DNA from: Treponema sp.
Lineage (GTDB): Bacteria; Spirochaetota; Spirochaetia; Treponematales; Breznakiellaceae
Reading direction: 5' to 3'
Assembly: GCA_009777735.1 (NCBI GenBank)
Contig: WRLF01000015.1
Coordinates: 1,135 to 65,134 of the forward strand
DNA length: 64,000 nt
The notes below the pieces were generated by a model that saw only the letters and a list, made by a program, of their open reading frames with translations, did no database searches and was not told the origin of the DNA. Each line of letters begins with the position of its first letter. The stretch's first letter is position 1. The translations under genes were made by a program, and so were the position numbers. Positions 6,926 to 52,151 of this stretch are shown here, in pieces.

Positions 6926-8131
6926 TTAAAATGTTATGCCCGCGCGCAGGTTAATCCACTGCGTCTGCTGCTCAGGATTTGGCGGGGCAAACCGGTTCTC
7001 CCACCGCCAGTAATATGAAAAGGCAACGTATGCGCCCGGAGCCAGGTTTACCTGTACTTTTGGCTCTACTTCATAGTACGAAAACGAAGAACCGCACACC
7101 ATTTTGCCGTCGCCAAAATCATTGGCATAACCAAAAATGAATCCGGGAGCAACTAAACCGCCAAACAGGTTATAGAAAAAGCTTGGCCGTACCAATACAA
7201 TTTGCCGGGTTCTTTCCGCTTCCAAACCAAAACGTACCTGAGCGGTAAAAGAAGGCGGGGCGTATTGGACAAAGAACCAGTTTCTGGTAGAGAAATTAAG
7301 ATGAGGCATTGCGGATCCAATCCCGTCAAATTCGCCTAATGCCCATAATGACAAGCCGGGTGCCCATCGCTGCAGGGCGTATTCTTCAAACCGGTACACC
7401 AGGCTGCCCCCTTCCCGGTAAGGAGTCAACTGCCCCCCCGATACGGGGTCATAGTCCATTTCGCTGTCAAAACGGTAAGCAAAGCGGAACATAAACCAGT
7501 CATTTTTATAGGATGCTCCTACTACAGTTTCCTGAAGTACATCCTTCAGAGTGGGATCCCTGTCTATGGATGTGTTGGCATTACTGTTAATCCAGTTAAG
7601 CACAAAACCGACATTCAATTCACCCGGAACAAAAGCCGGTTTATATTCAAAACGAATTCCGCCGTTAGAGAGAATTTGCCCGATATCATAGACAACTTCC
7701 AGTTCCCGCCACATTTCAGGTCCGCCGGAAAGCACGGGTGAAGCCTGACCGGTACCCCAGGGTGAGGCCCCCAGTTTTCCCAATGAGAGGGTAAACTGGT
7801 CGTTAAAGAAACTACCCCAGGCAAAACCATAATCCCAGCTAGGCCCGTTGATGGGCGCGTTGTTAAAAACCTCCCAGTTGACTCTGGCTTTAAGCCCCAT
7901 GTTCCCGGCAGCATTGGTAAAACCCATGTCCAACCGAAAACGATTGCCAAAGTCACCGGCATCGTCCTTGCTGCCCAAAAATACCAATGCAGGGGGGGAG
8001 TCATCTTCTCTCCAGTCATCTATTTTTTCCCAAATAATACCTGTCTTGATTTCGCCATTTAGAGAAAAAGTCTGGGCAAAGGATGGAATGGAAACAACCG
8101 CCGCAAGTGCTAGTGCAATTAATGTTTTCAC
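6926..8131 (-). CDS. Putative outer-membrane beta-barrel protein, paralog 2 of 3
   Basis: Shares SLGKLGASPW, GGPEMWRELE, PGELNVGFVLNW, YKNDWFM and INLRAGITF with neighbours; GTG start at 8131 with AGGAG SD. Confidence 0.65.
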   Translation of the reverse strand: MKTLIALALAAVVSIPSFAQTFSLNGEIKTGIIWEKIDDWREDDSPPALVFLGSKDDAGDFGNRFRLDMGFTNAAGNMGLKARVNWEVFNNAPINGPSWDYGFAWGSFFNDQFTLSLGKLGASPWGTGQASPVLSGGPEMWRELEVVYDIGQILSNGGIRFEYKPAFVPGELNVGFVLNWINSNANTSIDRDPTLKDVLQETVVGASYKNDWFMFRFAYRFDSEMDYDPVSGGQLTPYREGGSLVYRFEEYALQRWAPGLSLWALGEFDGIGSAMPHLNFSTRNWFFVQYAPPSFTAQVRFGLEAERTRQIVLVRPSFFYNLFGGLVAPGFIFGYANDFGDGKMVCGSSFSYYEVEPKVQVNLAPGAYVAFSYYWRWENRFAPPNPEQQTQWINLRAGITF

Positions 8132-8157
8132 GTAGTATCTCTCCTGAAATTTCATGG

Positions 8158-9384
8158 TTAAAATGTTATACCCGCGCGCAGATTAATCCACTGCGTTTGC
8201 TGCTCAGGGGGATATAATAACGGGTTAAACTGGTTCTCCATCCGCCAATAGTATGAAAGGGAAATGTATGCACCCGGAGCAAGGTTCGCCTGTACCGTGG
8301 GTTCAAATTCAAAGTATGAATATGCAGAACCGGGCACTTTTTTTGCGTTACCAAAATCATTGGCATAACCAATAATGATCCCCGGAGAAATCAGGCCGTC
8401 AAACAAATTGTAGAAAAAGCTTGGCCGTATGAGTACAATTTTTTGAGTATAATACGCTTCAAAACCAAGATTTACCGCTTCAAGGCCAAGAGGTAAAATT
8501 TCAAGACCAAGCTGTAACTCAGCGGTAAATGCAGGCGGGGCGTATTGGATAAAAACCCAGTTTCTGGTAAAAAAATTAATATCGGGCTTTTCGGATCCAA
8601 TCCCGTCGAATTCACCCAATGCATATAACGACAAGCCGGACACCCATCGCTGCAGAGCATATTCCTCCACCCGATACACCAGGCTGCCTCCTTCCCGGAA
8701 AGGATCGGTTCCTATTGCCCGGTCAAAGTCAGCTTCGCTGTCAAAACGGTAGGCAGCGCGGACCATAAACCAGTCGTTTTTATAGGACATCCCTATAACA
8801 CTTTCCGAAAGTACATCCTCCAAAGAAAAAGAAGCGGCCTCTGTCCCTGTCCCAAGACCGGCATCGGTGAGACCGGTATTAATCCAGTTAAGCACAAAAC
8901 CGACATTCAACTCACCCGGGATAAAGGAGGGTTTCCACTCAACGCGTAACCCCCCGGTAGGGGCCAGTTCCAGTTCCCGCCACATGTACGGTCCGCCGGA
9001 ACTCCAGGGTGAGGCCCCAAGTTTTCCCAAAGACAGGGCAAGCTGATCGTTAAAAAAACTACCCCAGGCAAAACCATAGGTCCAGAAAGGTCCAAAGCCG
9101 GTTTCCCGGTTTGTAAATTCCTCCCAGTTAAACCTGGTTTTAAACCCAACATTCCCGTCAGCGTTTGTATACACCAGGTCGACACGGAAACGCCCGTCCA
9201 GGCTGCCGGCATCGTCCATGCTGCCCATACGTATGCCGGTCACAACGGAGTCAGCCTCCTTCCTCCGATCTTCTACCCGTTCCCAAATAAGGCCTGTCTT
9301 GACTTCGCTGCTAACGGAAAGGCTCTGGGCAAAAGATGGTATGGAAACAAACGCCGCCAGCGCCAGTACAAGTAATTTTTTCAC
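8158..9384 (-). CDS. Putative outer-membrane beta-barrel protein, paralog 1 of 3
   Basis: Same motifs as the two downstream paralogs; signal peptide; terminal Phe. Confidence 0.65.
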   Translation of the reverse strand: MKKLLVLALAAFVSIPSFAQSLSVSSEVKTGLIWERVEDRRKEADSVVTGIRMGSMDDAGSLDGRFRVDLVYTNADGNVGFKTRFNWEEFTNRETGFGPFWTYGFAWGSFFNDQLALSLGKLGASPWSSGGPYMWRELELAPTGGLRVEWKPSFIPGELNVGFVLNWINTGLTDAGLGTGTEAASFSLEDVLSESVIGMSYKNDWFMVRAAYRFDSEADFDRAIGTDPFREGGSLVYRVEEYALQRWVSGLSLYALGEFDGIGSEKPDINFFTRNWVFIQYAPPAFTAELQLGLEILPLGLEAVNLGFEAYYTQKIVLIRPSFFYNLFDGLISPGIIIGYANDFGNAKKVPGSAYSYFEFEPTVQANLAPGAYISLSYYWRMENQFNPLLYPPEQQTQWINLRAGITF

Positions 9385-9396
9385 GGAGCATCTCCC

Positions 9397-12183
9397 TTAT
9401 TCGTTATACAACCGTACTGATATGATTTGGTTTCTGAGCAAATTAATATACGCTGCATCTCTGGCAGCATTTATTTGCGGTGTTTCCCATTCAGTAATGA
9501 CATTGCGTTCGCCCGGCCCCTGCCTGGAGCGCATTGCTTCGGCGCCGCTAATTCTAAAGCCGGAAGGCAGCACCAATTTTATGTTACCCGGTCTAAAACC
9601 ATTACTGCCGGTTCCGGAAACGGATGTAGAAACATCTGTCGGGGCAAATATGATAAAGCTGATGTATTCAATGTCATTTACATTGCCGTTCCAGGCTGTT
9701 AGGTTCACGTAGAACGGATCGGGCATGGGCCGTCCGGTACCGTAATCCCTGTCCCGCAATCTAACAAAAGCTGTTGCTTTTACCGCCCGTGATGAGGCGC
9801 CTGCAGAACCGCCGTGGTTCGTACCCGTACCGGAGCCAATGTTCTGATAATTTTTGGGGTTTAAATTGCCGCTGTCGGTCCCCTGAAAATTGACAGCTGC
9901 TGTTGCAGTGCCGGTATCGCCGGTAAACAGGGTACCGGAAGCCGTTATGTTGACATGGTACGTTTCTTTGGCAAACTTTGCATAATGCGACATGGCCCAG
10001 CCCCTGGGAAGAATCTGACCGTTAGCCGTTCCGTACTCGCCGTCACCAATTAAACTGTAGAACCGTTTGCCGGCCCACCAGATATAGGCATTTTCGTGGT
10101 TGTTCCTTATGTGAATGTCAATGCTGTTCAGGAAAGGCCATATATTGGACCATGATGAATCGAGGTTATAGTTTGATACAGTGTTCAGGTTAAATTCGGT
10201 CTGCCATATCTCTCTGGGATCGGCGGAGTAAGTTACATTGGGAGAGGCATTGCCAAGCTGGCCTGCAAGGTTAACATTCCTGCTGCCGTACGGGTGGCGT
10301 GCGATAATGCCAATGTTCGCTTTTGCGGCAGCGTTGTTCATTGCGGAAGAATGGATATTCGGGTTATTGGCGGATGAACCGCTCATGGTTATCACATACG
10401 GCAATTCCCTGCCGCCGCCGTATCCCGGTATATTTGAGGGCCAGGTAACAGCGCTGGCAGGATCAGAACCGCTGCGTCCCGCACGGGTAAAATAACCAAC
10501 CCGCTGGAAGAAGTTCCGCATCATATCACCTGTCCAGTTACAGCCATCATAAGCTGCGTTGTGATTGGGCTCGTTCTGTATGGAAATGGTGTAGACAGGA
10601 GCGCCGTTATTGGCCATAGCCTGGCCATACACCCGTAAATAATTGGCATAATTCGGGTAAAATTGCTCCCGCAGGCTGGCGTTGGTGCCGATGGTGGAGT
10701 TATTCGTTTTCCACACAGCGGGCGGAGTCCAGGGGCTTGCCAGGACATACCCGCCGTAATAATTGACCCGCCGTACCAGATGAAAGTAGTTAAGCCCGGC
10801 TGCTGTGGCAGTAAAATCCGTGAGCATTTGGACAGGATCTTCATTATGAGGCAAAATCATAATGCGCTGGACATTGTACCCCAGGATATCGGGGTTAAGC
10901 ATATTTTCAATATCCGTTTGTGTGAGGTTGGGGAAATTTGCCCAAGCGGTATCCATTGAACCAAAACCGCGGACAAACTGGTTTTTGTTGCTGCTTGATC
11001 TGCCTGCATCGGTGTTGGCAGGCATGGCGGTAAGATTTGCAATGGAAAGAGTCAGGTTTACATTATAACCGTTATCGGTTGTTGCAGTCGCTACCACAAT
11101 ATCAGCAGCGTTACTGGTAATGGAAGCATATTGCTCCACCTGCGCATGCTCGGCGAAATTCGTAATAATAACACGATACCGGGTTGTCCCTGCAGCAGTG
11201 AGACTTAAGGCAGGAGTAAATGCTGCGGTGGTTGCCCCTGTTCCCGTTGTGACATCTTCAAAGACTTCAGGGGTTGCACCGCTTGCAGATGTTCGTACCT
11301 GCCATTGATAGCTGAGTTCCCCGCCGTCTTCCGCGACTGCATCTACGGTTATGGGTCTGATCGTATCACCGTTAAAATAAATTGCCCCTCTGGGTTGTGA
11401 ATTAATTACCGGTACTACCGCATCCGGGTTGGGGATAACCGATACACGGGCCGGGTTGGATAAAACAAAGGATTCCCTGTTTCCCATTTTGGAAAAATCA
11501 AAGTTTGTAACCCTGACAAAATAGTAATATTCTCCGGGAGCGGTGGGTACGGGCCGGAACACAGTAGCTGTAGCAAATGGGATCTCTTCCCCGTGTGTGT
11601 TCGTTAATTCACTGGCCACAAACCACTGGTAGGATAGTTCACCTTCTTCAACTTCAGCCTCTACAAATAATTCGGGAAGGTTCATATCCCGTGAAAATAC
11701 AATGCTGGGGACATTCTGGGGATGTGTAATAATACTTGGTAACAAGGCATTGGACGGATCGTTTACATTGACCATTACCGAGCGGCTTTGAGCAGTGGCT
11801 GTCCTCCTGCTGGTCGCGTTATTGTTGGTATTAGTAACAACGACATAGAAGTTATAGCTCCTTTCTACAAAAATAATACCTGTTTCGTAAACGGAGCTTG
11901 TCGCGTCCGGTATGGGTGTTCCAAGATGTAATTCATACTCAGCGGGACTTATATATCTGTACCACTGGTATGATAGTTCACCGCCATCGGCAGAATGGGC
12001 TTCAACCTCCAGTAAAGCGGAGTTGTTTACCAACATGGAAACATTTTGCGGCTGCACGTAAATAAACGGCGGAGCGGCATCTACAGACGTAGCAACCTCT
12101 AACGGACTCATATCACAGCCAACGGCCATGATAACTGCCAGCACAAGAATGCTCAGAATTTTCAAGTACATTGAATTTTTCAT
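9397..12183 (-). CDS. Surface lipoprotein: N-terminal Ig-like repeats plus GH30 (glucuronoxylanase-like) catalytic domain
   Basis: Lipobox MAVGC; three 'GELSYQW' Ig-like modules; GH30 motifs VRGFG, LASPWTPPAVWKTNN, ISIQNEP (acid/base), IWQTE (nucleophile), AYIWW. Confidence 0.8.
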   Translation of the reverse strand: MKNSMYLKILSILVLAVIMAVGCDMSPLEVATSVDAAPPFIYVQPQNVSMLVNNSALLEVEAHSADGGELSYQWYRYISPAEYELHLGTPIPDATSSVYETGIIFVERSYNFYVVVTNTNNNATSRRTATAQSRSVMVNVNDPSNALLPSIITHPQNVPSIVFSRDMNLPELFVEAEVEEGELSYQWFVASELTNTHGEEIPFATATVFRPVPTAPGEYYYFVRVTNFDFSKMGNRESFVLSNPARVSVIPNPDAVVPVINSQPRGAIYFNGDTIRPITVDAVAEDGGELSYQWQVRTSASGATPEVFEDVTTGTGATTAAFTPALSLTAAGTTRYRVIITNFAEHAQVEQYASITSNAADIVVATATTDNGYNVNLTLSIANLTAMPANTDAGRSSSNKNQFVRGFGSMDTAWANFPNLTQTDIENMLNPDILGYNVQRIMILPHNEDPVQMLTDFTATAAGLNYFHLVRRVNYYGGYVLASPWTPPAVWKTNNSTIGTNASLREQFYPNYANYLRVYGQAMANNGAPVYTISIQNEPNHNAAYDGCNWTGDMMRNFFQRVGYFTRAGRSGSDPASAVTWPSNIPGYGGGRELPYVITMSGSSANNPNIHSSAMNNAAAKANIGIIARHPYGSRNVNLAGQLGNASPNVTYSADPREIWQTEFNLNTVSNYNLDSSWSNIWPFLNSIDIHIRNNHENAYIWWAGKRFYSLIGDGEYGTANGQILPRGWAMSHYAKFAKETYHVNITASGTLFTGDTGTATAAVNFQGTDSGNLNPKNYQNIGSGTGTNHGGSAGASSRAVKATAFVRLRDRDYGTGRPMPDPFYVNLTAWNGNVNDIEYISFIIFAPTDVSTSVSGTGSNGFRPGNIKLVLPSGFRISGAEAMRSRQGPGERNVITEWETPQINAARDAAYINLLRNQIISVRLYNE

Positions 12184-38987: not shown

Positions 38988-41900
38988 AAAAGTGTATCGT
39001 TGTTTTGTTGAAAAAAAGCCCGGTTTTGATATCTCCGCAAAAGCTGTGCAAAATGAGTTATCGCATTTTTTAACATTGCCTTCCGTAACGGTACGGATTT
39101 TTAACCGTTATGACATTCAAAATCTGCCGCGGGACAGTTGGCCGCACGTAATGCATACCGTGTTGAGTGAACCGGCGAGCGATAATTGTTATGAAGATGA
39201 CCTGCCGCCGCTGCCTGGGGGAGTTCGGTTATTATACATCGAATCTTTACCCGGACAGTTTGACATGCGCGCTGACTCATGCGAACAATGCGTACAGATG
39301 TTTTTGGGCGGGCAGCGCCCCATTGTGCGGGCAGCGCAGGTGTTTGCGATTGAAGGCATTAACGATACGGATTATAACCGGGTAAAAAATTACTTGATCA
39401 ACCCGGTTGAGTGCCGCGAGGCATCTCCCGACAAACCTGACACCCTGCTCAGACGTGATAACGAGTCCCCTGACGACATTCCGGTACTGAAAGAATTCAC
39501 CGAAATGGATAATGAGTCGCTTGAAATATTAAGATCGCAGCTCAATTTGGCCATGTCGCTTCCCGACTTGTTAACGATACAAAAATATTTTACCGGCGAA
39601 CGCCGCGACCCCACATTAACAGAACTTCGGGTAATGGACACATACTGGTCGGATCATTGCAGGCACACGACATTTAACACCATAATCGGCTCAGTCAATA
39701 TTCATGACGAGCGTGTACAAAAAGCATACGATTTATTTTTAAGAATCAACGGTGAAAAACCGGTAACGCTTATGCGGATAGCTACTGCCGCCATGCGATA
39801 TCTGCATAGACAAGGCGATCTGCCCATGCTTGATGTGTCCGATGAAAATAACGCCTGCACGGTTAAAATCAAAGCGGATTTCGCAAACGGAACCGAGGAC
39901 TGGTTGTTGTTTTTTAAAAACGAGACACACAATCACCCGACGGAAATAGAGCCGTATGGCGGTGCATCAACCTGCATTGGCGGCGCGATACGTGACCCGC
40001 TGTCGGGACGGGCTTATGTGTATCAGGCAATGCGGATTACCGGTGCAGGCGATCCCAGAAAACCAATCGAGGAAACCCTGCCGGGCAAACTTCCGCAACG
40101 CAAAATCACCGTGAAAGCTGCCGAAGGGTACAGCTCCTACGGCAACCAAATCGGGCTTGCTACCGGATATGTGAAAGAATTGTACCATGAAGGATATGTC
40201 GCCAAACGGCTGGAAACAGGAGCGGTGGTAGGGGCTGCACCGCTGTCATCGGTTCGCAGGGAAATTCCTGCTCCGGGTGACATTGTGGTACTGCTGGGAG
40301 GACGCACCGGACGCGACGGTATTGGCGGCGCAACAGGCTCGTCAAAAACCCATGGTACAGAAACCGTTTCCGAATGCGCCGCCGAAGTGCAAAAGGGCAA
40401 CGCGCCGGAAGAACGAAAACTCCAGCGCCTGTTCTCGAACCCGCAAGTGACCGCACTCATTAAACGCTGCAATGATTTTGGCGCGGGCGGCGTGTCGGTG
40501 GCAATCGGTGAACTGACCGACGGAATTGAGATCAACCTTGATGCAGTTCCAACGAAATACGACGGCCTGGACGGCACAGAGCTTGCCATCTCGGAATCGC
40601 AGGAACGCATGGCGGTGGTGGTCGCGGACAGCGATTGGCACGCCCTGTTGCAACACGCCGAGGCGGAAAATATCGAAGCGACAGCAGTCGCCCGCGTAAC
40701 CGGGGACAACCGGCTTGTCATGTTGTGGCGCGGTCAAAAAATTGTTGATATTGATCGGGCCTTTTTGGATACGAACGGCGCCGAACGGCACACTGCCGTT
40801 ACCGTTCCTCCCATGCCTCATTGTAAACCGCAGGCAAACGAAAAGACACTTGCCGAAAAACTGCTCCGGCTTGCCGGCGATTTACAATTTTGCTCGCAAA
40901 AAGGGCTTGTGGAACGCTTTGACAGCACTATTGGCGCGGCAAGCGTTTTCGTACCCTTTGGCGGCAAATATACTATGACAGAAACACAGGTAATGGCAGC
41001 CAAACTGCCAAAGCAAGGAGCCCGCACAGCTTCTGTTATGGCGTATGGATTTGATCCGTATTTTACCGAGACAGACCCATTTGCCGGTTCAGCATACGCA
41101 GTAGTAACATCAATCGCCAAACTGGCCGCGTCAGGCGTAACGCCCGATACAATCCATCTTTCGCTGCAGGAATATTTTCCGCGCATGAACGATGTCCCGG
41201 CGCGTTGGGGGCTGCCTTTTGCCGCCATGCTGGGGGCGTTTTCCGCACAGATGGGCTTAAAAATAGCGGCCATAGGCGGCAAGGATTCCATGTCCGGCAG
41301 TTTCGGAGAGCTTGACGTACCACCCACGCTTATTTCATTTGCTGCGGGTGTCTGCGACGCGTCCCATTTGATAAGCCCCGAATTTAAGAATGCGGGAAAC
41401 CGGGTTTATTTATTGGAAACCCCAATGAATCCCAGCGGCGAGCCCGATTACCCGGCATTGCGAACCGCATGGGAAAATTACGCGACATTGTGCCGCGCCG
41501 GAAAAATACTGTCTGCGTGGGCCTGCGAAACAGGCGGGGTATACGGCGGCATAATGAAAATGGCCCTTGGCAACGAAATTGGATTTTCGGGCAATGCAGA
41601 CATGAAATTTTTTGACCGTTTGTGGGGATCCATTATTTTTGAAACTTCCGATGAATTGGACGGATACAGGTTACTGGGATACACCCAGGCGGAGCCTGCA
41701 CTCACGTTAGGCGAAACCACTGTCCCGCTGGTTGAAATTCGCGCCGCTTGGGAAAAACCTCTTGAAAGTGTATTCCCGGTGAAAACAGAACAGCCTGGCG
41801 TTATCCCTCCTCTTCTTCCTCCGTGTGCTTTGCGTTCCTCTGCGCCTCTGCGTGAAAAAAATTCCAAAAAGACCTTTGCGAAACCAAAGGCGATCATACC

Positions 41901-45830: not shown

Positions 45831-45868
45831 TACCCCATCACCCTGTGATAAGCCAGAGGAGCTAGGAT
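45831..45868 (+). promoter_or_regulatory. Palindromic box 1 plus -10 element
   Basis: TA-CCCC-ATCAC-CCT-GTGAT-AAGC-CA, 7 nt, TAGGAT. Confidence 0.7.
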
Positions 45869-45898
45869 AGAAGCAGAATCTTTTTTTAGGAGAAAATA

Positions 45899-46711
45899 AT
45901 GGAAGATGCATCAAAAGAAAAGTCGTCTGACCTTATTAAATTCATAAGATTGAATGAACCAGTAGAGACTATTTATATATCGGATGGAGCTCTAAACCCA
46001 ATTAATTCTTATCGGAAAATTTTAGAAATATGCAAAATGAATGATAATGGAGAATTTGAAAAATGTTCATTAAAAAAAATGGAAGAGAATGCAAGTTTTT
46101 TATCAAAGAATAATTTCTACAAGGAGAAATTTGAAGAAGGAAAGGCTTTAAGGAATATACTGCAAATCCGCAGTAAAAGACTAAATGCCAAATTTGTTTG
46201 GTCAGAAAAAAATATAAAGAGACTAATGAAAATAAATGATAATTTTATCAAATGCTGGGAAACAGGTTTTATTGAAGCAAAGTCTGCCATGAATATGTTA
46301 TTTGAACGAATGGATAATAATAAAGATTCATTTCTGAATAATTATGAAGTTCGGATAAAGCTTCTCCCCAAAATACTAATCCGTAGCAGTAAAACAAGAA
46401 GATATATCAATCGTAAAAATGGAATATATGATGTTATTAACTATGGCAATTGGGATTTAGAACTTAGGGCAAATAACCTATATGATCCATCAACCAAAGA
46501 TGATAAGAATTTTTATAGTCATCGGTATATATCCAAAGACAAAAATTGGAATACTGAAACCTTTGGATGTAAAGAATTATCAGAGCATTATATATGCTAT
46601 ACATTACACAGGTTGTGCCGTAAGGATTGGGCTATTGGAGATATTTTGAAAATTAACCGGATTGATATTGAAGTCAATGTAAGTTGCCAGTCGAGTACAG
46701 AGGTTTTTTAA
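45899..46711 (+). CDS. Hypothetical protein (AT-rich)
   Basis: 270-aa ORF with AGGAG SD; no recognisable family. Confidence 0.7.
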   Translation: MEDASKEKSSDLIKFIRLNEPVETIYISDGALNPINSYRKILEICKMNDNGEFEKCSLKKMEENASFLSKNNFYKEKFEEGKALRNILQIRSKRLNAKFVWSEKNIKRLMKINDNFIKCWETGFIEAKSAMNMLFERMDNNKDSFLNNYEVRIKLLPKILIRSSKTRRYINRKNGIYDVINYGNWDLELRANNLYDPSTKDDKNFYSHRYISKDKNWNTETFGCKELSEHYICYTLHRLCRKDWAIGDILKINRIDIEVNVSCQSSTEVF

Positions 46712-46758
46712 TCAAGAATTATTTGTGATATGCTAGAAATAACTTGAAGAGGAAAGTA

Positions 46759-46983
46759 ATGGAAGATAAAGAAGGTAAAATATCGTCTGAATTAATTAAA
46801 TTTTTAAAAGTGGATATAAACGCAATGTACAATGAGCTTTTCACACCCGGTACTATAAGGAAAAATGATATTAATCTAATGACTCAACAGTTATGTAAAG
46901 TATATGAAAATGATGATTTTGAAAATCGTTCATAAAAAAATCTAGAAAATGATGTTTTTCTCGAACAAAAGGAAAATTTTTAA
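46759..46983 (+). pseudogene. Truncated paralog of the 45899 ORF
   Basis: MEDKEGKISSELIKFLK vs MEDASKEKSSDLIKFIR; LCKVYENDDFENRS*KNLEN vs ICKMNDNGEFEKCSLKKMEE (in-frame TAA). Confidence 0.6.
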
Positions 46984-46987
46984 TATT

Positions 46988-47025
46988 TGCTCCATCACTT
47001 CGTGATTAACCAGACAAGCTATACT
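46988..47025 (+). promoter_or_regulatory. Palindromic box 2 plus -10 element
   Basis: TG-CTCC-ATCAC-TTC-GTGAT-TAAC-CA, 7 nt, TATACT. Confidence 0.75.
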
Positions 47026-47055
47026 TAAATCAATATCACACTGAAGGAGATACCA

Positions 47056-48345
47056 ATGATTGGATCAAACGAAATGAAACTGGATTGCCATACCAGTTGT
47101 ATTATGGCAGTAAAACGGGACGGTCGCTTGCTTGAGCATATTCCAAACCAGAATCTGGAAATTTGTCTTGCGGCAGTTAAGGAAGATTACCGCACTCTGC
47201 AATACGTTAAAAGCAAAACTTTTAAAATTTGCCTTACTGCAGTTACCTGTGACGGCGATGCATTGCAATTTGTTAATGAACATGAACTTGACCAGGAACA
47301 GTATTTTGAAGTTTGTCTTGCTGCCGTAAAAAATGGTTGTTCTTTGCAATATGTAAAGGAACATATTTTAAGTGACAAACAGTATTCGGAAATCTGCTCT
47401 GAAGCGGTTAAAAGAAATAGGCAAGACTTATCATTCATCAGGCAGCAAACCCATGAACTCTGTCTTGCAGCCGTCCTAAATTGCGGATATTCACTGCAGT
47501 ATGTACAAGAGCAATCGTATGAACTCTGCCTTGCCGCCGTTCAAAATGACAGTGACGCTCTAAAGTATGTTGATTCAAACAAGCTTTCCAGCGATCAATA
47601 CTTCCGTATATGCATGAAAGCTATAGCGCATGGAAGCCGGTTAAACTATATGTTTCCGTTTATAGACGAATCACTGTTATCAGAATCGCAATACAGCGAA
47701 TTACGCGCATTTGCTGTTACCAGAGACGGCAGTGTTCTGGAACAGATTAACAAACAAACACCGGAATTGTGCCTTGCCGCTGTTCGGGAAGACGGAATGG
47801 CATTGGAATATGTAAAAAACCAAACGCCAGAAAATTGTCTTGCAGCATTATACAATGACTGCCGCGCCCTTAAATATGTACAAGATCAAAGCGAAGATCT
47901 GTGCATTGCTGCTATGCGAATTAACCATTTTGATGATGACAATAGAAAAAAACGACGGTGCATTTTATGTTCTCCATCACCATCTCCATTACCGTATGTC
48001 AAGAAGCAAACAAAGGCAATTTGCATTGCAGCAGTGGAATCTGACGGTTTATCTCTTGTTTATGTCGAAGAGCAGACTCCAGAAATATGCCTTGCAGCGG
48101 TAAGCCAGAATGGCATGGCGTTGCAGTATGTGAAAAATCAGACTCCGGAAATTTGTCATGCAGCAGTATTGCAGTGCCCTGATGCATTGCAGTTTGCAAG
48201 ACATCAGACTGAAGAATTATGTCTTTCGGCAGTAAGCAGAAATATCAGTATGATATTCTTTGCGGATGAAAAACTGAGAAGTCCAGCTGTGCTGAATGCT
48301 GCGGAAGAACAACGGAAGGCTGAGAAACAAGGGAAAAAGGAATAG
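47056..48345 (+). CDS. DUF4116-type repeat protein
   Basis: Many tandem repeats QTPE(L/I)CLAAV..(N/D)G.AL(Q/E)YV. Confidence 0.8.
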   Translation: MIGSNEMKLDCHTSCIMAVKRDGRLLEHIPNQNLEICLAAVKEDYRTLQYVKSKTFKICLTAVTCDGDALQFVNEHELDQEQYFEVCLAAVKNGCSLQYVKEHILSDKQYSEICSEAVKRNRQDLSFIRQQTHELCLAAVLNCGYSLQYVQEQSYELCLAAVQNDSDALKYVDSNKLSSDQYFRICMKAIAHGSRLNYMFPFIDESLLSESQYSELRAFAVTRDGSVLEQINKQTPELCLAAVREDGMALEYVKNQTPENCLAALYNDCRALKYVQDQSEDLCIAAMRINHFDDDNRKKRRCILCSPSPSPLPYVKKQTKAICIAAVESDGLSLVYVEEQTPEICLAAVSQNGMALQYVKNQTPEICHAAVLQCPDALQFARHQTEELCLSAVSRNISMIFFADEKLRSPAVLNAAEEQRKAEKQGKKE

Positions 48346-48362
48346 GCTTTTTCTGAGAAGAG

Positions 48363-49253
48363 GTTCACACAGAGGCACGGAGATTGGGGTGGGGCATGGG
48401 AATGCTACGCTTGCTTCGTGCCTTTTTATATCCGTACATTTGACATATTTCTGGAATTTGGAGTATTATTAGTTTAAGGGGAAAAATCATAAATGAAGAA
48501 TTATTATGATGCTCTAAGTGAATTATACCATAATTATAATATGCTGGAAAATGGGATTGATATATTATTGCATGATAAGTGTTGTTTTTATGAAAACTGC
48601 TGGACCAAAGAAATGAAAATAAGTAAAGGAGTAGACTGGAATAAAATATCATTTCCACATATAGGAGAAAAATATAACAGAGGTTTAATGTGTATTGGAA
48701 TTAACATGCATGATCATGGGGGCATTAATGCAATTCCTCGTGTAGTCGAAAGTGTGAAAAAATTATTAATAAGCGGAAAGAAAAAATATAAAACATCTTT
48801 CTTATGGCATAGAATTGCTGTATATTCTAATATTATATTGAATAAAAAGATTTCTCCCGATGATGGTTATGAATTATCAGATGTGTACAATAATATTGCT
48901 TTTGTTAATGCTATCAAATGTTCTCCAATGAGTAAAAAAAATATTGGTAAAAATGACAGATCAACTCCAATGGATAACATGTGGAAATTTTGTCCAGAAA
49001 ATATTTTATATAAAGAAATTACTATTTTGCAACCAAAAATGATATTAATACTGGGAAATCAACTTTCAGAAATTTTAAGTAAAAAATGTATTGGAGAAAT
49101 TCAGCGATCAAAAAATATTGCATACTACGAGATAATGCTTGAAGGGAACCCGATAAAAATACTTAGAATAAAACATCCAGCATCCCCAGGGGGATGTAAA
49201 AAAGAAATTTACAAAGAATTGTTATCTTTGTGCCTCCGTGCCTCTGTGTGAAC
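48363..49253. mobile_element. Cassette bounded by perfect 20-bp inverted repeats carrying one AT-rich gene
   Basis: GTTCACACAGAGGCACGGAG (48363-48382) / CTCCGTGCCTCTGTGTGAAC (49234-49253); no transposase and no obvious TSD. Confidence 0.55.
48493..49251 (+). CDS. Uracil-DNA glycosylase superfamily-like protein
   Basis: PHIGEKY, LMCIGIN, IAFVNAIKC, EITILQPKMILILG, KHPAS; own TTGACA-18-TATTAT promoter. Confidence 0.6.
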   Translation: MKNYYDALSELYHNYNMLENGIDILLHDKCCFYENCWTKEMKISKGVDWNKISFPHIGEKYNRGLMCIGINMHDHGGINAIPRVVESVKKLLISGKKKYKTSFLWHRIAVYSNIILNKKISPDDGYELSDVYNNIAFVNAIKCSPMSKKNIGKNDRSTPMDNMWKFCPENILYKEITILQPKMILILGNQLSEILSKKCIGEIQRSKNIAYYEIMLEGNPIKILRIKHPASPGGCKKEIYKELLSLCLRASV

Positions 49254-49269
49254 AAAATCGAAAAACGTA

Positions 49270-49866
49270 TTAACCAGAAAAACCCTTCTCCAAAAACCCC
49301 ATCACAACATCCCTCGCCATCTCACTCTCCAGCATCCTGATAAAAATCTGATACGTAACAAGCGAATCATACATACTGCCATGCAGTTGGCTTTTAATAA
49401 ATTCTACCCCGTAAAACGTGGCTGTTTCTTCTAAAGATGGGAATTTTGGCCTTCCATTTTTTTGTTTCAAACACAGGATTTTTGTGTTTGCTTTCATGGT
49501 GCAAAATTCATGGGGAAGCTGGAAATTAATGTATTGCTTATCATAAAATATATTATGCCCGACAAAGTGCTGGGTGTCAGAGCAGAACAGTCGAAACGCT
49601 TCAATGTCATTGTAAAAATGCTTCGGGTATTCGGCATTCTCCCTTCGTTGGTGAATAACCTTGTCAGTCAGGCCGTTTACGTTTACTGCCTTTGCGCCAA
49701 ATTTTTCTCCGGGTTTGCGGAAATAAAAACGCTCATATCGGTCTGTAATGGCGCTAATTATTTTTTGTTGCTCAATCGAAAAAGAATACTTTATGGCAGA
49801 GATTGACAAAACGCTGTGATAATTTCTCAAGCCGTTAGTTTCAGTGTCCCAAAAAATGACATTCAT
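49270..49866 (-). CDS. DEDDh 3'-5' exonuclease (DnaQ-like)
   Basis: ExoI WDTETNG, ExoII GHNIFYD, ExoIII LHGSMYD; abuts the WYL gene stop. Confidence 0.85.
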   Translation of the reverse strand: MNVIFWDTETNGLRNYHSVLSISAIKYSFSIEQQKIISAITDRYERFYFRKPGEKFGAKAVNVNGLTDKVIHQRRENAEYPKHFYNDIEAFRLFCSDTQHFVGHNIFYDKQYINFQLPHEFCTMKANTKILCLKQKNGRPKFPSLEETATFYGVEFIKSQLHGSMYDSLVTYQIFIRMLESEMARDVVMGFLEKGFSG

Positions 49867-50865
49867 TTATTCTTTTACCTTCTCATACAATACATGAATG
49901 GTTTTCTTCCATTCCTTCACCAGTTCAGGCGGCTCAATAGGGCGGACTCCGCTGCCATACGACAGTACCCATGACAGGACTTTTTCGTATTGGGTGCTGG
50001 AAAAACTAATAATGATGCCTTGCCCGTCTTTATTCCGCTGGATTTTTTGGTCAGATGCCCATTGCCTGTCTTGTATGTCCTGCGCCAGCCAGGAAGAAAA
50101 ACTTATTTTATAACGCTTTTTGTTACCGATAAAAACGCCGAAATAACTGCCGTCATTTTTGGCGCAATAATCAAAGTCTTTTGGCAGGGTAAAACGCTCA
50201 TTGGTCAGCGCCGCTTTTTGAATGCGCGACAGTGAAAAAAGGCGCATGGCGGATCGTTCTTCCGCATAGGCGTAGAGATACCAGGCCCCGGTATCAAACA
50301 AAAGCTGGTAGGGTCGAACAAGCCTTGATTTATACGCATCATCATAGATGCCTTTGTACTCAAAACTGAGCAGCCTGTTTTCCTTCATTGCATCCACAAT
50401 AATTTCCCATACATCGGCATTAACCGGAGCGAAAGCGACCGGCGGGACGATGATACGGTTTTCATACCATGCCGCCTGTTTTACGCTTGCGGCCTCATCA
50501 GGAGAAAGCGGGGCGGTTATGTCATCCAACAGGCGCTTGGCGGACTCATAAAGCGGGGTATTTTTATACAGGGAAAGCAGGGATTTTGCCATGCCCAAAG
50601 CCAGCATATCGGCGGCGGAAGCAAAGCGGGCCGGTAGCCTGAAGGATTTTTCCTCATAGTACCAGCCCCGGTTTTTCGGGCAGTATTCAATCGGCGCACC
50701 CAGTATATCTCTCATGTACTCTATATCCCGGTAGATAGTGGCTGTCCCCACTTCATATTCCTTTGCCAAATATTTGCAATCAGGGTACTTTCCGGAGGCT
50801 ATTTGCCTGTCAATGAAATAAATCCGCGCTAAAACTGCCCTTGGCAGGGTTTTTCTGGTTTCCAT
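49867..50865 (-). CDS. wHTH-WYL-WCX transcriptional regulator
   Basis: HTH LAKEYEVGTATIYRDIEYMRD; RLVRPYQL...GAWYLYAY...MRLFSLSRI; C-terminal WVLSYG..V.PIEPPEL. Confidence 0.93.
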   Translation of the reverse strand: METRKTLPRAVLARIYFIDRQIASGKYPDCKYLAKEYEVGTATIYRDIEYMRDILGAPIEYCPKNRGWYYEEKSFRLPARFASAADMLALGMAKSLLSLYKNTPLYESAKRLLDDITAPLSPDEAASVKQAAWYENRIIVPPVAFAPVNADVWEIIVDAMKENRLLSFEYKGIYDDAYKSRLVRPYQLLFDTGAWYLYAYAEERSAMRLFSLSRIQKAALTNERFTLPKDFDYCAKNDGSYFGVFIGNKKRYKISFSSWLAQDIQDRQWASDQKIQRNKDGQGIIISFSSTQYEKVLSWVLSYGSGVRPIEPPELVKEWKKTIHVLYEKVKE

Positions 50866-50871
50866 GCTCTT

Positions 50872-50909
50872 ATTATGCCTCTATTGGTTAATCATAACAT
50901 GATGGAGCA
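50872..50909 (-). promoter_or_regulatory. Palindromic box 3 plus -10 element of the WYL gene (leaderless)
   Basis: Minus strand TG-CTCC-ATCAT-GTT-ATGAT-TAAC-CA, 7 nt, CATAAT, 6 nt, ATG. Confidence 0.75.
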
Positions 50910-50939
50910 GAAATTTAAAGGCACTTTTCTTAAAAATTT

Positions 50940-50977
50940 TGATACATCACTCTGTGATTATGCAAATGGTATATATT
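50940..50977 (+). promoter_or_regulatory. Palindromic box 4 plus -10 element
   Basis: TG-ATAC-ATCAC-TCT-GTGAT-TATG-CA, 7 nt, TATATT. Confidence 0.75.
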
Positions 50978-51004: not shown

Positions 51005-51583
51005 ATGAAATTAAAAGTTGAACAAATCACAGATTCTGAAAGAAAAACAAAAACGGTAATGGATTATTACGGTCCAAGTATTGATAATGACGAAATAAGC
51101 AATTCGGAAGTTTGGACATTAATAACTGAAGATACCGAAAATATAATTTATTTTTTAATGGTAATGAAAAAGAATCTATGGGATAATCCTCAAGATGATT
51201 CAATAAAAATAACCCATTTAAATGGTCATAGTTCCATTTTCGAAAAGGAATATTTTATGAAGTTTTATCTCTTTGTAGAAAGATATTATGTTAACAATGG
51301 ATTTGACAGTTTTAATGTAAGTATTCCAAAAATAAAAGGAACAACATATTTTAGAAAATTCTTTAAAAGAGCCGGTTTCTTTGAATGTAAAGAATTTAAA
51401 TATAATGTTGCTGAGGAAAAGAGTGAGGTAAAGACACTTTTTATGAAATCAAATTTTTTGGAAGATTGGTATGTGAAAGAAGACGGAAGCCTTTTCCCCA
51501 TCACAGTGACTGGGGAAAATGGGGAATACAAACCTATAAAGAAAAAAATTGCAAAAAAATTGAATCTGGATATCAATCTTTAA
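51005..51583 (+). CDS. Hypothetical protein (AT-rich)
   Basis: AAGGAGG SD before ATG 51005; no family recognised. Confidence 0.7.
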   Translation: MKLKVEQITDSERKTKTVMDYYGPSIDNDEISNSEVWTLITEDTENIIYFLMVMKKNLWDNPQDDSIKITHLNGHSSIFEKEYFMKFYLFVERYYVNNGFDSFNVSIPKIKGTTYFRKFFKRAGFFECKEFKYNVAEEKSEVKTLFMKSNFLEDWYVKEDGSLFPITVTGENGEYKPIKKKIAKKLNLDINL

Positions 51584-51602: not shown

Positions 51603-52151
51603 ATGAATGATTATGAAATCCGCGAAGCATTTTGTAATAACATAGTTGATACCTATTCTGATAAGTTTAGAATTATTGACGAATTGGTAATTGGAAAAGC
51701 GCGGGCGGATATTGTCATAGTAACGGATTATTTAACAGGATATGAGATCAAAGGTGATACCGATTCTTACGTTCGTTTACCCGGGCAAATTAAAGAATAT
51801 GATAGTTATTTTCAACAGAATTATCTCGTAGTTGGTGAAAATCATATAAAGAGTTCGGAAAAGCATATTCCGCCTTATTGGGGAATTATCTATATTTCAA
51901 AATCAGTAAACAGTGTACAGATAGAAACTATACGCGAATCCAAACCAAGCCCCAAATTTAATCAGAAAAAACAACTTAGATTGCTTTGGCGTAAGGAATT
52001 AGCCAACATCTTGAAATGTAACCAGTTACAAAAATGCCATGGTAAAAATAAGGCATACATAGCCAAATATTTATTCGAGAATGTTCAACTTAATATTCTT
52101 CAAAAGCAGATATGCGAAGAATTATTTGAGCGTGATTGGACATTATTGTAA
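51603..52151 (+). CDS. sce7726-family protein (PD-(D/E)xK-like nuclease fold)
   Basis: IDEL.IG.ARADI......GYEIK...D...RL..Q...Y...F...YLV...WGI. Confidence 0.75.
   Translation: MNDYEIREAFCNNIVDTYSDKFRIIDELVIGKARADIVIVTDYLTGYEIKGDTDSYVRLPGQIKEYDSYFQQNYLVVGENHIKSSEKHIPPYWGIIYISKSVNSVQIETIRESKPSPKFNQKKQLRLLWRKELANILKCNQLQKCHGKNKAYIAKYLFENVQLNILQKQICEELFERDWTLL

Follow-up and report, generated by a model that had tools for sequence, protein, structure and literature searches.

We analysed a 64,000-nucleotide (nt) stretch of DNA from Treponema sp. (contig WRLF01000015.1, positions 1,135 to 65,134; hereafter the window), which harbors four copies of a 25-base-pair (bp) palindrome (hereafter the box) together with a gene for a regulator with winged helix-turn-helix (wHTH), WYL and WCX domains. 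As judged from sequence comparisons, the palindrome very likely serves this adjacent wHTH-WYL-WCX protein as its binding site; on balance, the protein and its close relatives (hereafter the clade WYLs) are probably DriD-like activators, triggered by single-stranded DNA (ssDNA), of their own genes and of local accessory islands. The four boxes had been reported by an earlier reading of the window's letters alone (the sequence-only reading), and pattern matching recovered them at 45831..45855 (+), 46988..47012 (+), 50885..50909 (-) and 50940..50964 (+), giving 7 strand-matches at 4 sites versus 0.01 expected, a number that none of 100 shuffles reached. The 13-nt core occurs exactly only at these four sites, and with one mismatch allowed its matches are at the background level (11 versus 7.9). 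As that reading had also stated, a -10-like hexamer follows each box after 7 nt, namely, TAGGAT (45863..45868, +), TATACT (47020..47025, +), CATAAT (50872..50877, -) and TATATT (50972..50977, +), so that copy 1, for instance, is a predicted WYL site over the -35 position. Copy 3 lies in the WYL gene's own promoter, and both of its arms are identical to those of copy 2. Copy 4, the weakest, which scores below the threshold of the family matrix described below, diverges from copy 3 at 55 bp centre to centre.

The pattern was derived from the very sites that it describes, so its proper test is on sequences not used to build it, and there it holds. Applied to the loci of other genomes, a box matrix built from the window's own genome (G000; 2.69 Mb, 83% complete) gave 39 matches in 192 kb versus none in the reversed sequences, and a second out-of-sample scan gave 50 matches in 437 kb versus 3 reversed. 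The matrix for the whole family found 146 matches in 915 kb around WYL relatives versus 10 reversed; this set includes the training sites, from which the two out-of-sample tests are separate. Within G000 itself there are four WYL genes, one at each of four loci, and the exact pattern recurs outside the window at two sites, both on contig C2 around the second WYL gene. The matrix scan extends these to eight boxes in the C2 island, weaker boxes on contigs C1 and C9, and a divergent box pair on contig C3 before two leucine-rich repeat (LRR) genes, with 21 strand-hits scoring at least 21 versus none in the reversed genome. The C2 arm TGATAGACC differs from the window-type arm TGATTAACC, and the gap to the -10 on C2 is mostly 6 nt. 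A looser genome-wide pattern was discarded for its high background and replaced by a strict box-plus-(-10) pattern.

A clade WYL at E <= 1e-70 was found in 42 of the 218 family genomes; the named relatives are Spirochaetaceae and Treponema genomes, including that of Treponema primitia, a bacterium of the termite gut. A homologue search gave 696 proteins, and P0089, listed by its source as a protein of T. primitia ZAS-2, is 60% identical. With the duplicate loci L002 and L007 left out of the family locus set, a box lies within 160 nt upstream of the WYL gene, mostly ahead of a leaderless ATG, for 38 of the 54 clade WYLs versus none of the 8 distant WYLs, which lends support to the autoregulation proposed from the window. 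The strict pattern has 135 matches in the 42 clade-WYL genomes (33 of the 42 positive, 24 with at least two) and 39 in the other 176 (33 positive, five with at least two), with 10 matches in all genomes for the backward control; kin genomes are not independent in these tallies. In a complete genome, G046, all nine strict matches lie no more than 9 kb from one of three WYL genes. Beyond the family, a similar box with a -10 at the same distance is present at 12 of 27 phylum-level loci. Moreover, box variants follow paralogs: all 53 of 53 cargo boxes are closer to the WYL box of their own locus than to the mean of the others, and at 16 of 17 multi-paralog loci the cargo boxes are nearer to the box of a foreign orthologue than to that of a same-genome paralog (copy 4 of the window was included manually, and the two members of a reciprocal pair do not count as independent). 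The proposed link between box and WYL gene thus withstands the wider comparison, and the co-regulation of scattered cargo genes gains support from both the family-wide co-occurrence and the paralog tracking. Because the variants follow paralogs, each WYL paralog would drive its own island. We consider it extremely unlikely that the box is read by an alternative sigma factor or an unlinked regulator, or that its link to the WYL gene is incidental. It is true that 33 of the 176 genomes without a full clade match hold a strict-pattern match, and that no WYL gene lies on the contig with the C3 box pair of G000; however, 28 of those 33 are incomplete genomes with a single match, two of the remaining five hold truncated clade WYLs, the -10 hexamers are of sigma-70 type across the family boxes, and the variants follow paralogs within genomes.

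The position of the -10 relative to the box points to activation. When good -10 hexamers were counted on both sides of every family box, using a matrix iterated without -10 information, they fell at offsets of 6 nt (62 matches) and 7 nt (52), with none at 5 or 9 and at most 8 at any other offset. The invariant 7-nt spacing suggested by the four window copies is therefore replaced by a gap of 6 or 7 nt. Among 73 box promoters, 3 matched the -35 consensus at four or more of its six positions (spacing 16-18 nt), versus 32 of 78 controls, these being box-less leaderless-type starts of G000 (p 2e-8), and a sigma-70 scan paired no -35 with a -10 at any of the four window promoters, so that the absence of a -35 noticed at the outset applies to the family as well. 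A hidden -35 was also considered and rejected: any likeness of the right arm to TTGACA is confined to spacers of 11-12 nt, shorter than sigma-70 can use. At dyad -4/+4, C and G are invariant (99-100% of family boxes), and the promoter-proximal arm is better conserved than the distal one. A good -10 at offsets 6-8 accompanies 114 boxes, 104 of which have a downstream open reading frame (ORF), and in 47 of these 104 the start codon lies 6-7 nt past the -10, 32 of the 47 being WYL genes. According to PMC13004042, DriD acts on promoters that lack a -35 and binds a palindrome that covers the -35 position and keeps a set distance from the -10; its dyad-to-(-10) distance is +19 (two promoters, counted by eye), and that of the boxes here is +19 or +20.

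The window WYL protein (332 amino acids, 49867..50865, -) matches Pfam WYL at 6e-17, WCX at 3e-7 and, weakly, HTH_11 at 1e-3, and thus combines in one chain the HTH, WYL and WCX domains of a class A WYL regulator. Its AlphaFold model has a mean confidence score (pLDDT) of 84, and Foldseek placed DriD at the top (E 8e-16, template-modelling (TM) score 0.52-0.54), followed by PafBC and then by CapW and BrxR (TM 0.30-0.40). Accordingly, the homodimer DriD takes the place of PafBC, which the sequence-only reading had taken as its model, while the activator geometry proposed there is made more plausible by both the -35 depletion and the modelled fold. In the structure of its DNA complex, DriD reads CGAC with Arg37 at position 2, Glu40 at position 1 and Arg41 at position 4 (PMC10853764); we infer that these residues correspond to A42, Y45 and R46 here. 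R46 is present in 43 of 44 proteins and, together with the invariant C/G at dyad -4/+4, fits the base reading by Arg41 in DriD; position 42 is A, S, P, V or T in all 44; and residue 45 falls where the box arms vary. Across genomes, box similarity correlates with helix identity at rho 0.32, a small margin over the rho of 0.25 for core identity. The positions of the DriD pocket residues Tyr168, Arg178, Tyr192, Arg204, Trp206 and Tyr240 are kept or aromatic, while those of Arg207 and Arg189 are not kept in the clade WYLs. The motif RWHVR, a hallmark of WYL repressors (PMC11662680), is absent from the clade WYLs, in which W-Y-L is preceded by G-x and has no flanking arginines.

On these grounds, we regard binding of a dimer to the box through the recognition helix as highly probable, activation rather than repression as likely, and ssDNA as a fairly likely trigger; all three are predictions. 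The ssDNA-bound WYL protein would sit where the -35 element is missing and assist sigma-70 RNA polymerase in opening promoters whose sole element is a -10. In the window, transcripts would begin 6-7 nt past the hexamers, at about 45875, 47032, 50865 and 50984. Where the box precedes the WYL gene's own leaderless start, positive feedback would result, and the coupled 3'-5' exonuclease may, speculatively, trim the ssDNA signal. The output would be accessory genes for stress or conflict, in varying sets, rather than core repair genes.

Several observations weigh against this proposal. Sixteen of the 54 clade WYL genes have no proximal box, and paralog tracking could equally stem from islands inherited whole. 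The DriD HTH was not aligned by our profile search, so that the residue mapping is one of spacing pattern. Residue 45 is the best predictor of box base 21 among 320 columns, with 48 of 52 loci fitting; however, this co-variation comes down to 1-3 independent changes (sign test p = 1, with kinship taken from a quick tree), and L163 and L164, which have Ser45 with A, contradict the rule. Since the association is non-significant once kinship is allowed for, we rejected residue 45 as a proven specificity switch. Furthermore, where DriD has Arg207, a residue on which activation depends, 35 of 44 proteins have Ser, as does CapW, and none has Arg; the 50 of 108 promoters with an extended -10 TG may work unaided; self-regulation on islands is typical of repressors; and DriD, according to PMC13004042, does not activate its own gene. 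Some of these points suit a different role for the same WYL protein, namely, a repressor of the CapW/BrxR type that blocks extended -10 promoters and is released by ssDNA: the serine and the TG extensions fit it, and so does a box in the regulator's own promoter with control of a local island, as in BrxR (PMC9122601). However, a repressor needs neither a two-value spacing nor a missing -35; the BrxR repeats lie downstream of the -10 (PMC9122601), whereas the box here lies upstream; RWHVR is lacking; the fold is nearer to DriD than to CapW or BrxR; and the four window promoters have neither a TG extension nor a -35. We therefore hold repression to be unlikely.

At five recA and five lexA loci no box was found, the best scores being 0.5-10.3 against a threshold of 11; this negative covers recA and lexA, with uvrA, ssb and ruv not individually traced. 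All five genomes tested have LexA and RecA. The scan of genomes urged by the sequence-only reading thus shows enrichment near WYL orthologs and none at recA or lexA, and we rejected a global damage regulon, since these two genes are without a box and the matches cluster at WYL genes (G000 being 83% complete). An activator with another ligand (RNA, a nucleotide messenger or a repair product), on islands that answer stress other than DNA damage, would agree with a recA without a box in genomes that have LexA, with cargo that is mostly not DNA repair, and with the replacement of one key ssDNA-contact arginine, and a WYL factor sensing cyclic di-GMP is reported (PMC11880434). On the other hand, the residues at the DriD ssDNA-pocket positions (Y170, R181, Y196, R208, F210, R214 and an aromatic 245) are conserved, and DEDDh exonucleases occur at 13 of the 59 clade loci; one protein, P0115, is a clade WYL fused to an exonuclease domain 46% identical to the window exonuclease. 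The fusion ties WYL and exonuclease genes together, as expected from the co-regulation of the two proposed for the window, and another ligand seems to us distinctly improbable.

The predicted regulon is heterogeneous. Pfam families among 74 box-led or neighbouring proteins include AAA+ ATPases, tetratricopeptide repeat (TPR), LRR, Sel1 and zinc-finger proteins, LRAT, a dynamin-like GTPase, tyrosine phosphatases, nucleases and paralogs of FlhA, FliM and FliG, and many of the 74 have no family. Counted per locus, so that not every such gene has its own box, one AAA+ family occurs at 14 of the 59 clade loci, TPR proteins, like the DEDDh exonucleases, at 13, and flagellar paralogs or FliM-tip fusions at 12. 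A scan of 37 single proteins with PADLOC gave scattered matches to PDC-S26, NsnB-like, LeoA/BC-like, cll and IetA-like AAA models. The commonest partner is a 570-amino-acid AAA+ ATPase (L001:13050-14777 and 13 other clade loci), which is often leaderless behind its box and has a weak IetA-like match; for its N-terminal half we found only unnamed clusters and a weak winged-helix lead. The flagellar-type genes of the islands (L041:13724-15754; L091:2407-3900 and 8117-9550; L001:9783-10790; L107:349-1095; L070:7423-8163) are paralogs of FlhA, FliM and the FliG C-domain; the FliG-domain gene on C2 of G000 and another copy on contig C11, 49% identical to it, are separate genes, and one island family begins with a peptide that we take to resemble the CheY-binding tip at the FliM N-terminus. 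On C1 of G000 (L107:4122-10400), two tandem boxes stand ahead of a cluster with a fusion of a von Willebrand factor A (vWA) domain and an ATP-dependent DNA ligase, followed by kinase, vWA and phosphatase-like genes, as read from their translations.

The arrangement of these genes, mostly co-oriented AT-rich arrays (65 of 81 other promoters are on the WYL strand), each gene with its own box, would also be expected if the box were, or doubled as, a recombination site that captures single-gene cassettes in an integron- or dif-like manner, with the WYL gene as a passenger. In keeping with this, the 5-nt spacers of boxes before non-homologous genes have an identity of 0.62 within a locus versus 0.44-0.48 between genomes (0.48 for those with similar arms). 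However, the flanks are not more alike within loci than between genomes, the box is tied to a -10 and to leaderless starts, and its variants follow the regulator. In addition, no tyrosine recombinase lies on the WYL contigs of G000, and in G046 the closest one is some 32 kb distant (a search for PF00589 only, in three genomes); since none was found beside the loci in these three genomes, we judge a cassette system very unlikely. The likeness of the spacers may point to boxes being copied or converted locally, and it could also reflect paralog-specific indirect readout, which would look the same. A bolder version of the activator reading has the box and -10 as a portable promoter module, copied ahead of newly acquired genes, such that each paralog builds a self-amplifying, damage-inducible library under an orthogonal code set by one or two helix residues, with spare parts of the flagellar export apparatus and motor (FlhA, FliM and FliG) in these libraries remodelling spirochaete motility under attack; we offer it as a speculation that may well prove wrong.

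The window island spans 8 kb between what we take to be gatB on one side and a glutamine synthetase-like gene on the other, both named from translations. Its cargo has a GC content of 28-41%, compared with 48-49% for the flanks and the WYL gene. The ATG of the WYL gene sits 6 nt past its -10, and a leaderless mRNA is predicted. Immediately past its stop codon begins the gene for the DEDDh 3'-5' exonuclease (49270..49866, -; Pfam exonuclease), and the two genes are predicted to form one operon. A box was indeed seen before the WYL gene, as claimed from the outset; the other three boxes precede genes that were then called unrelated, a description that does not fully hold, as these genes show some kinship with other box-led genes. 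Thus, the gene behind copy 1 (45899..46711, +; 270 amino acids, 30% GC) encodes a protein without a Pfam, NCBIfam or PADLOC family, whose residues 53-270 resemble the C-termini of the box-led LRR protein on C3 and of a box-led Sel1 protein on C2; a search for relatives of near or longer length returned none, and the atlas gave no usable match. This unnamed domain of about 220 amino acids stands alone at 45899-46711 and is elsewhere fused behind LRR or Sel1 repeats (L108:3411-4037, L001:8340-8942 and L077:13099-13647), and all three of its G000 copies are box-led. Copy 2 is followed by a gene for 429 amino acids with DUF4116 repeats (47056..48345, +; Pfam), the C2 homologue of which is likewise box-led. 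Copy 4 precedes a gene for 192 amino acids counted from its ATG (51005..51583, +; 28% GC, no family) with a ribosome-binding site; in L075, the gene that immediately follows the WYL gene encodes a 34%-identical homologue. The sce7726-family gene that follows (51603..52151, +; NCBIfam NF033832, PADLOC model cll) is possibly co-transcribed from promoter 4, judging from the spacing. None of the four window promoters carries an extended -10 TG.

Two other genes of the island have no box of their own. A short ORF of 58 amino acids (46759..46935, +) repeats the 5' end of the 45899 gene and is headed by a partial copy of it at 46752-46815 (70% over 64 nt). A gene resembling that for uracil-DNA glycosylase (UDG) at 48493..49251 (+) is inside the island and outside the predicted regulon, and has its own promoter, TTGACA-18-TATTAT. 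Separately, a dispersed repeat of 9-nt units occurs at 48363-48382 and 49234-49253 and near 41854 and 44268, often in facing pairs about 100 bp apart (63 matches versus 22 reversed, with 3 mismatches allowed); one facing pair encloses the entire UDG-like gene and its promoter, which gives the impression of a gene inserted into the element.

Among more distant spirochaete WYLs, those with an arginine retained at the DriD Arg37 position have boxes of GAC-N7-GTC type with the same -10 spacing, at 3 of 8 loci by script and 6 of 8 by eye. Such DriD/DdaA-type boxes lie upstream of the WYL genes of this second spirochaete clade at L097, L099, L101, L103, L104 and L105, again at the same -10 distance, making it a candidate for a regulon of its own.

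Our literature searches returned no paper on the present clade or motif; supplements, which might list homologues, were outside their scope. What appears new is the spirochaete specificity, the probable self-activation, the presence of several regulons in one genome, each specific to a paralog, and the unusual cargo. The system would be the first concrete, testable WYL regulon in spirochaetes, with more than 100 natural promoter examples, and the activation geometry of DriD, solved in 2026, would thereby reach a further phylum and a different DNA specificity. The system points to accessory islands run by an activator, not a repressor, with a self-activation that is absent from DriD. The paralogs form a natural test series for how DNA is read by WYL recognition helices, and the box may serve as a tag for uncharacterised stress or defence genes, unexpected flagellar paralogs included.

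Among known systems, DriD of Caulobacter crescentus (PMC13004042, PMC10853764; PDB 8tp8, 9pfv) shares with the clade WYLs the wHTH-WYL-WCX fold and a core C-N7-G palindrome over the -35 position, at a fixed -10 distance and without a -35. However, identity is only 17-19%, the core of the box is RTCA-N5-TGAY versus CGAC-N7-GTCG, the position of Arg37 holds a small residue, the box faces the regulator's own gene, the cargo consists of island genes rather than didA, recJ and dnaG, and there are several paralogs per genome, unlike DriD. DdaA of Moraxellaceae (PMC12392091, PMC13010146) is likewise a WYL activator with the same half-site spacing (CGWCA-N5-TGWCG) and reaches defence genes, but in those accounts it governs the damage response globally, recA, uvrA and ssb included, and its own level is not induced, whereas the clade sites are local. 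With a different helix and motif and without a repair regulon, the clade WYL, as far as these sequences indicate, works like DriD but is not an orthologue of DriD or DdaA. The mycobacterial SiwR and PafBC (PMC10693628, PMC13004042) are activators as well, with a site between the -35 and -10 positions and with motifs unrelated to the clade box; SiwR, like the clade WYLs, has an imperfect palindrome and controls neighbouring genes (PMC10693628), but is described with one target operon, and PafBC is a heterodimer from tandem paralogous genes on a non-palindromic site, whereas a single WYL gene and a palindrome are found here. BrxR and CapW (PMC9122601, PMC11662680) are wHTH-WYL-WCX regulators of their own islands, too; BrxR has inverted repeats with a 5-bp spacer like that of the clade box (PMC9122601), and CapW has the Ser in the F-S-L-x-R strand (PMC11662680). 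They are, however, repressors with RWHVR, and the BrxR site is downstream of the -10, neither of which is seen in the clade; and while both head defined defence operons, the clade WYLs head many single-gene promoters.

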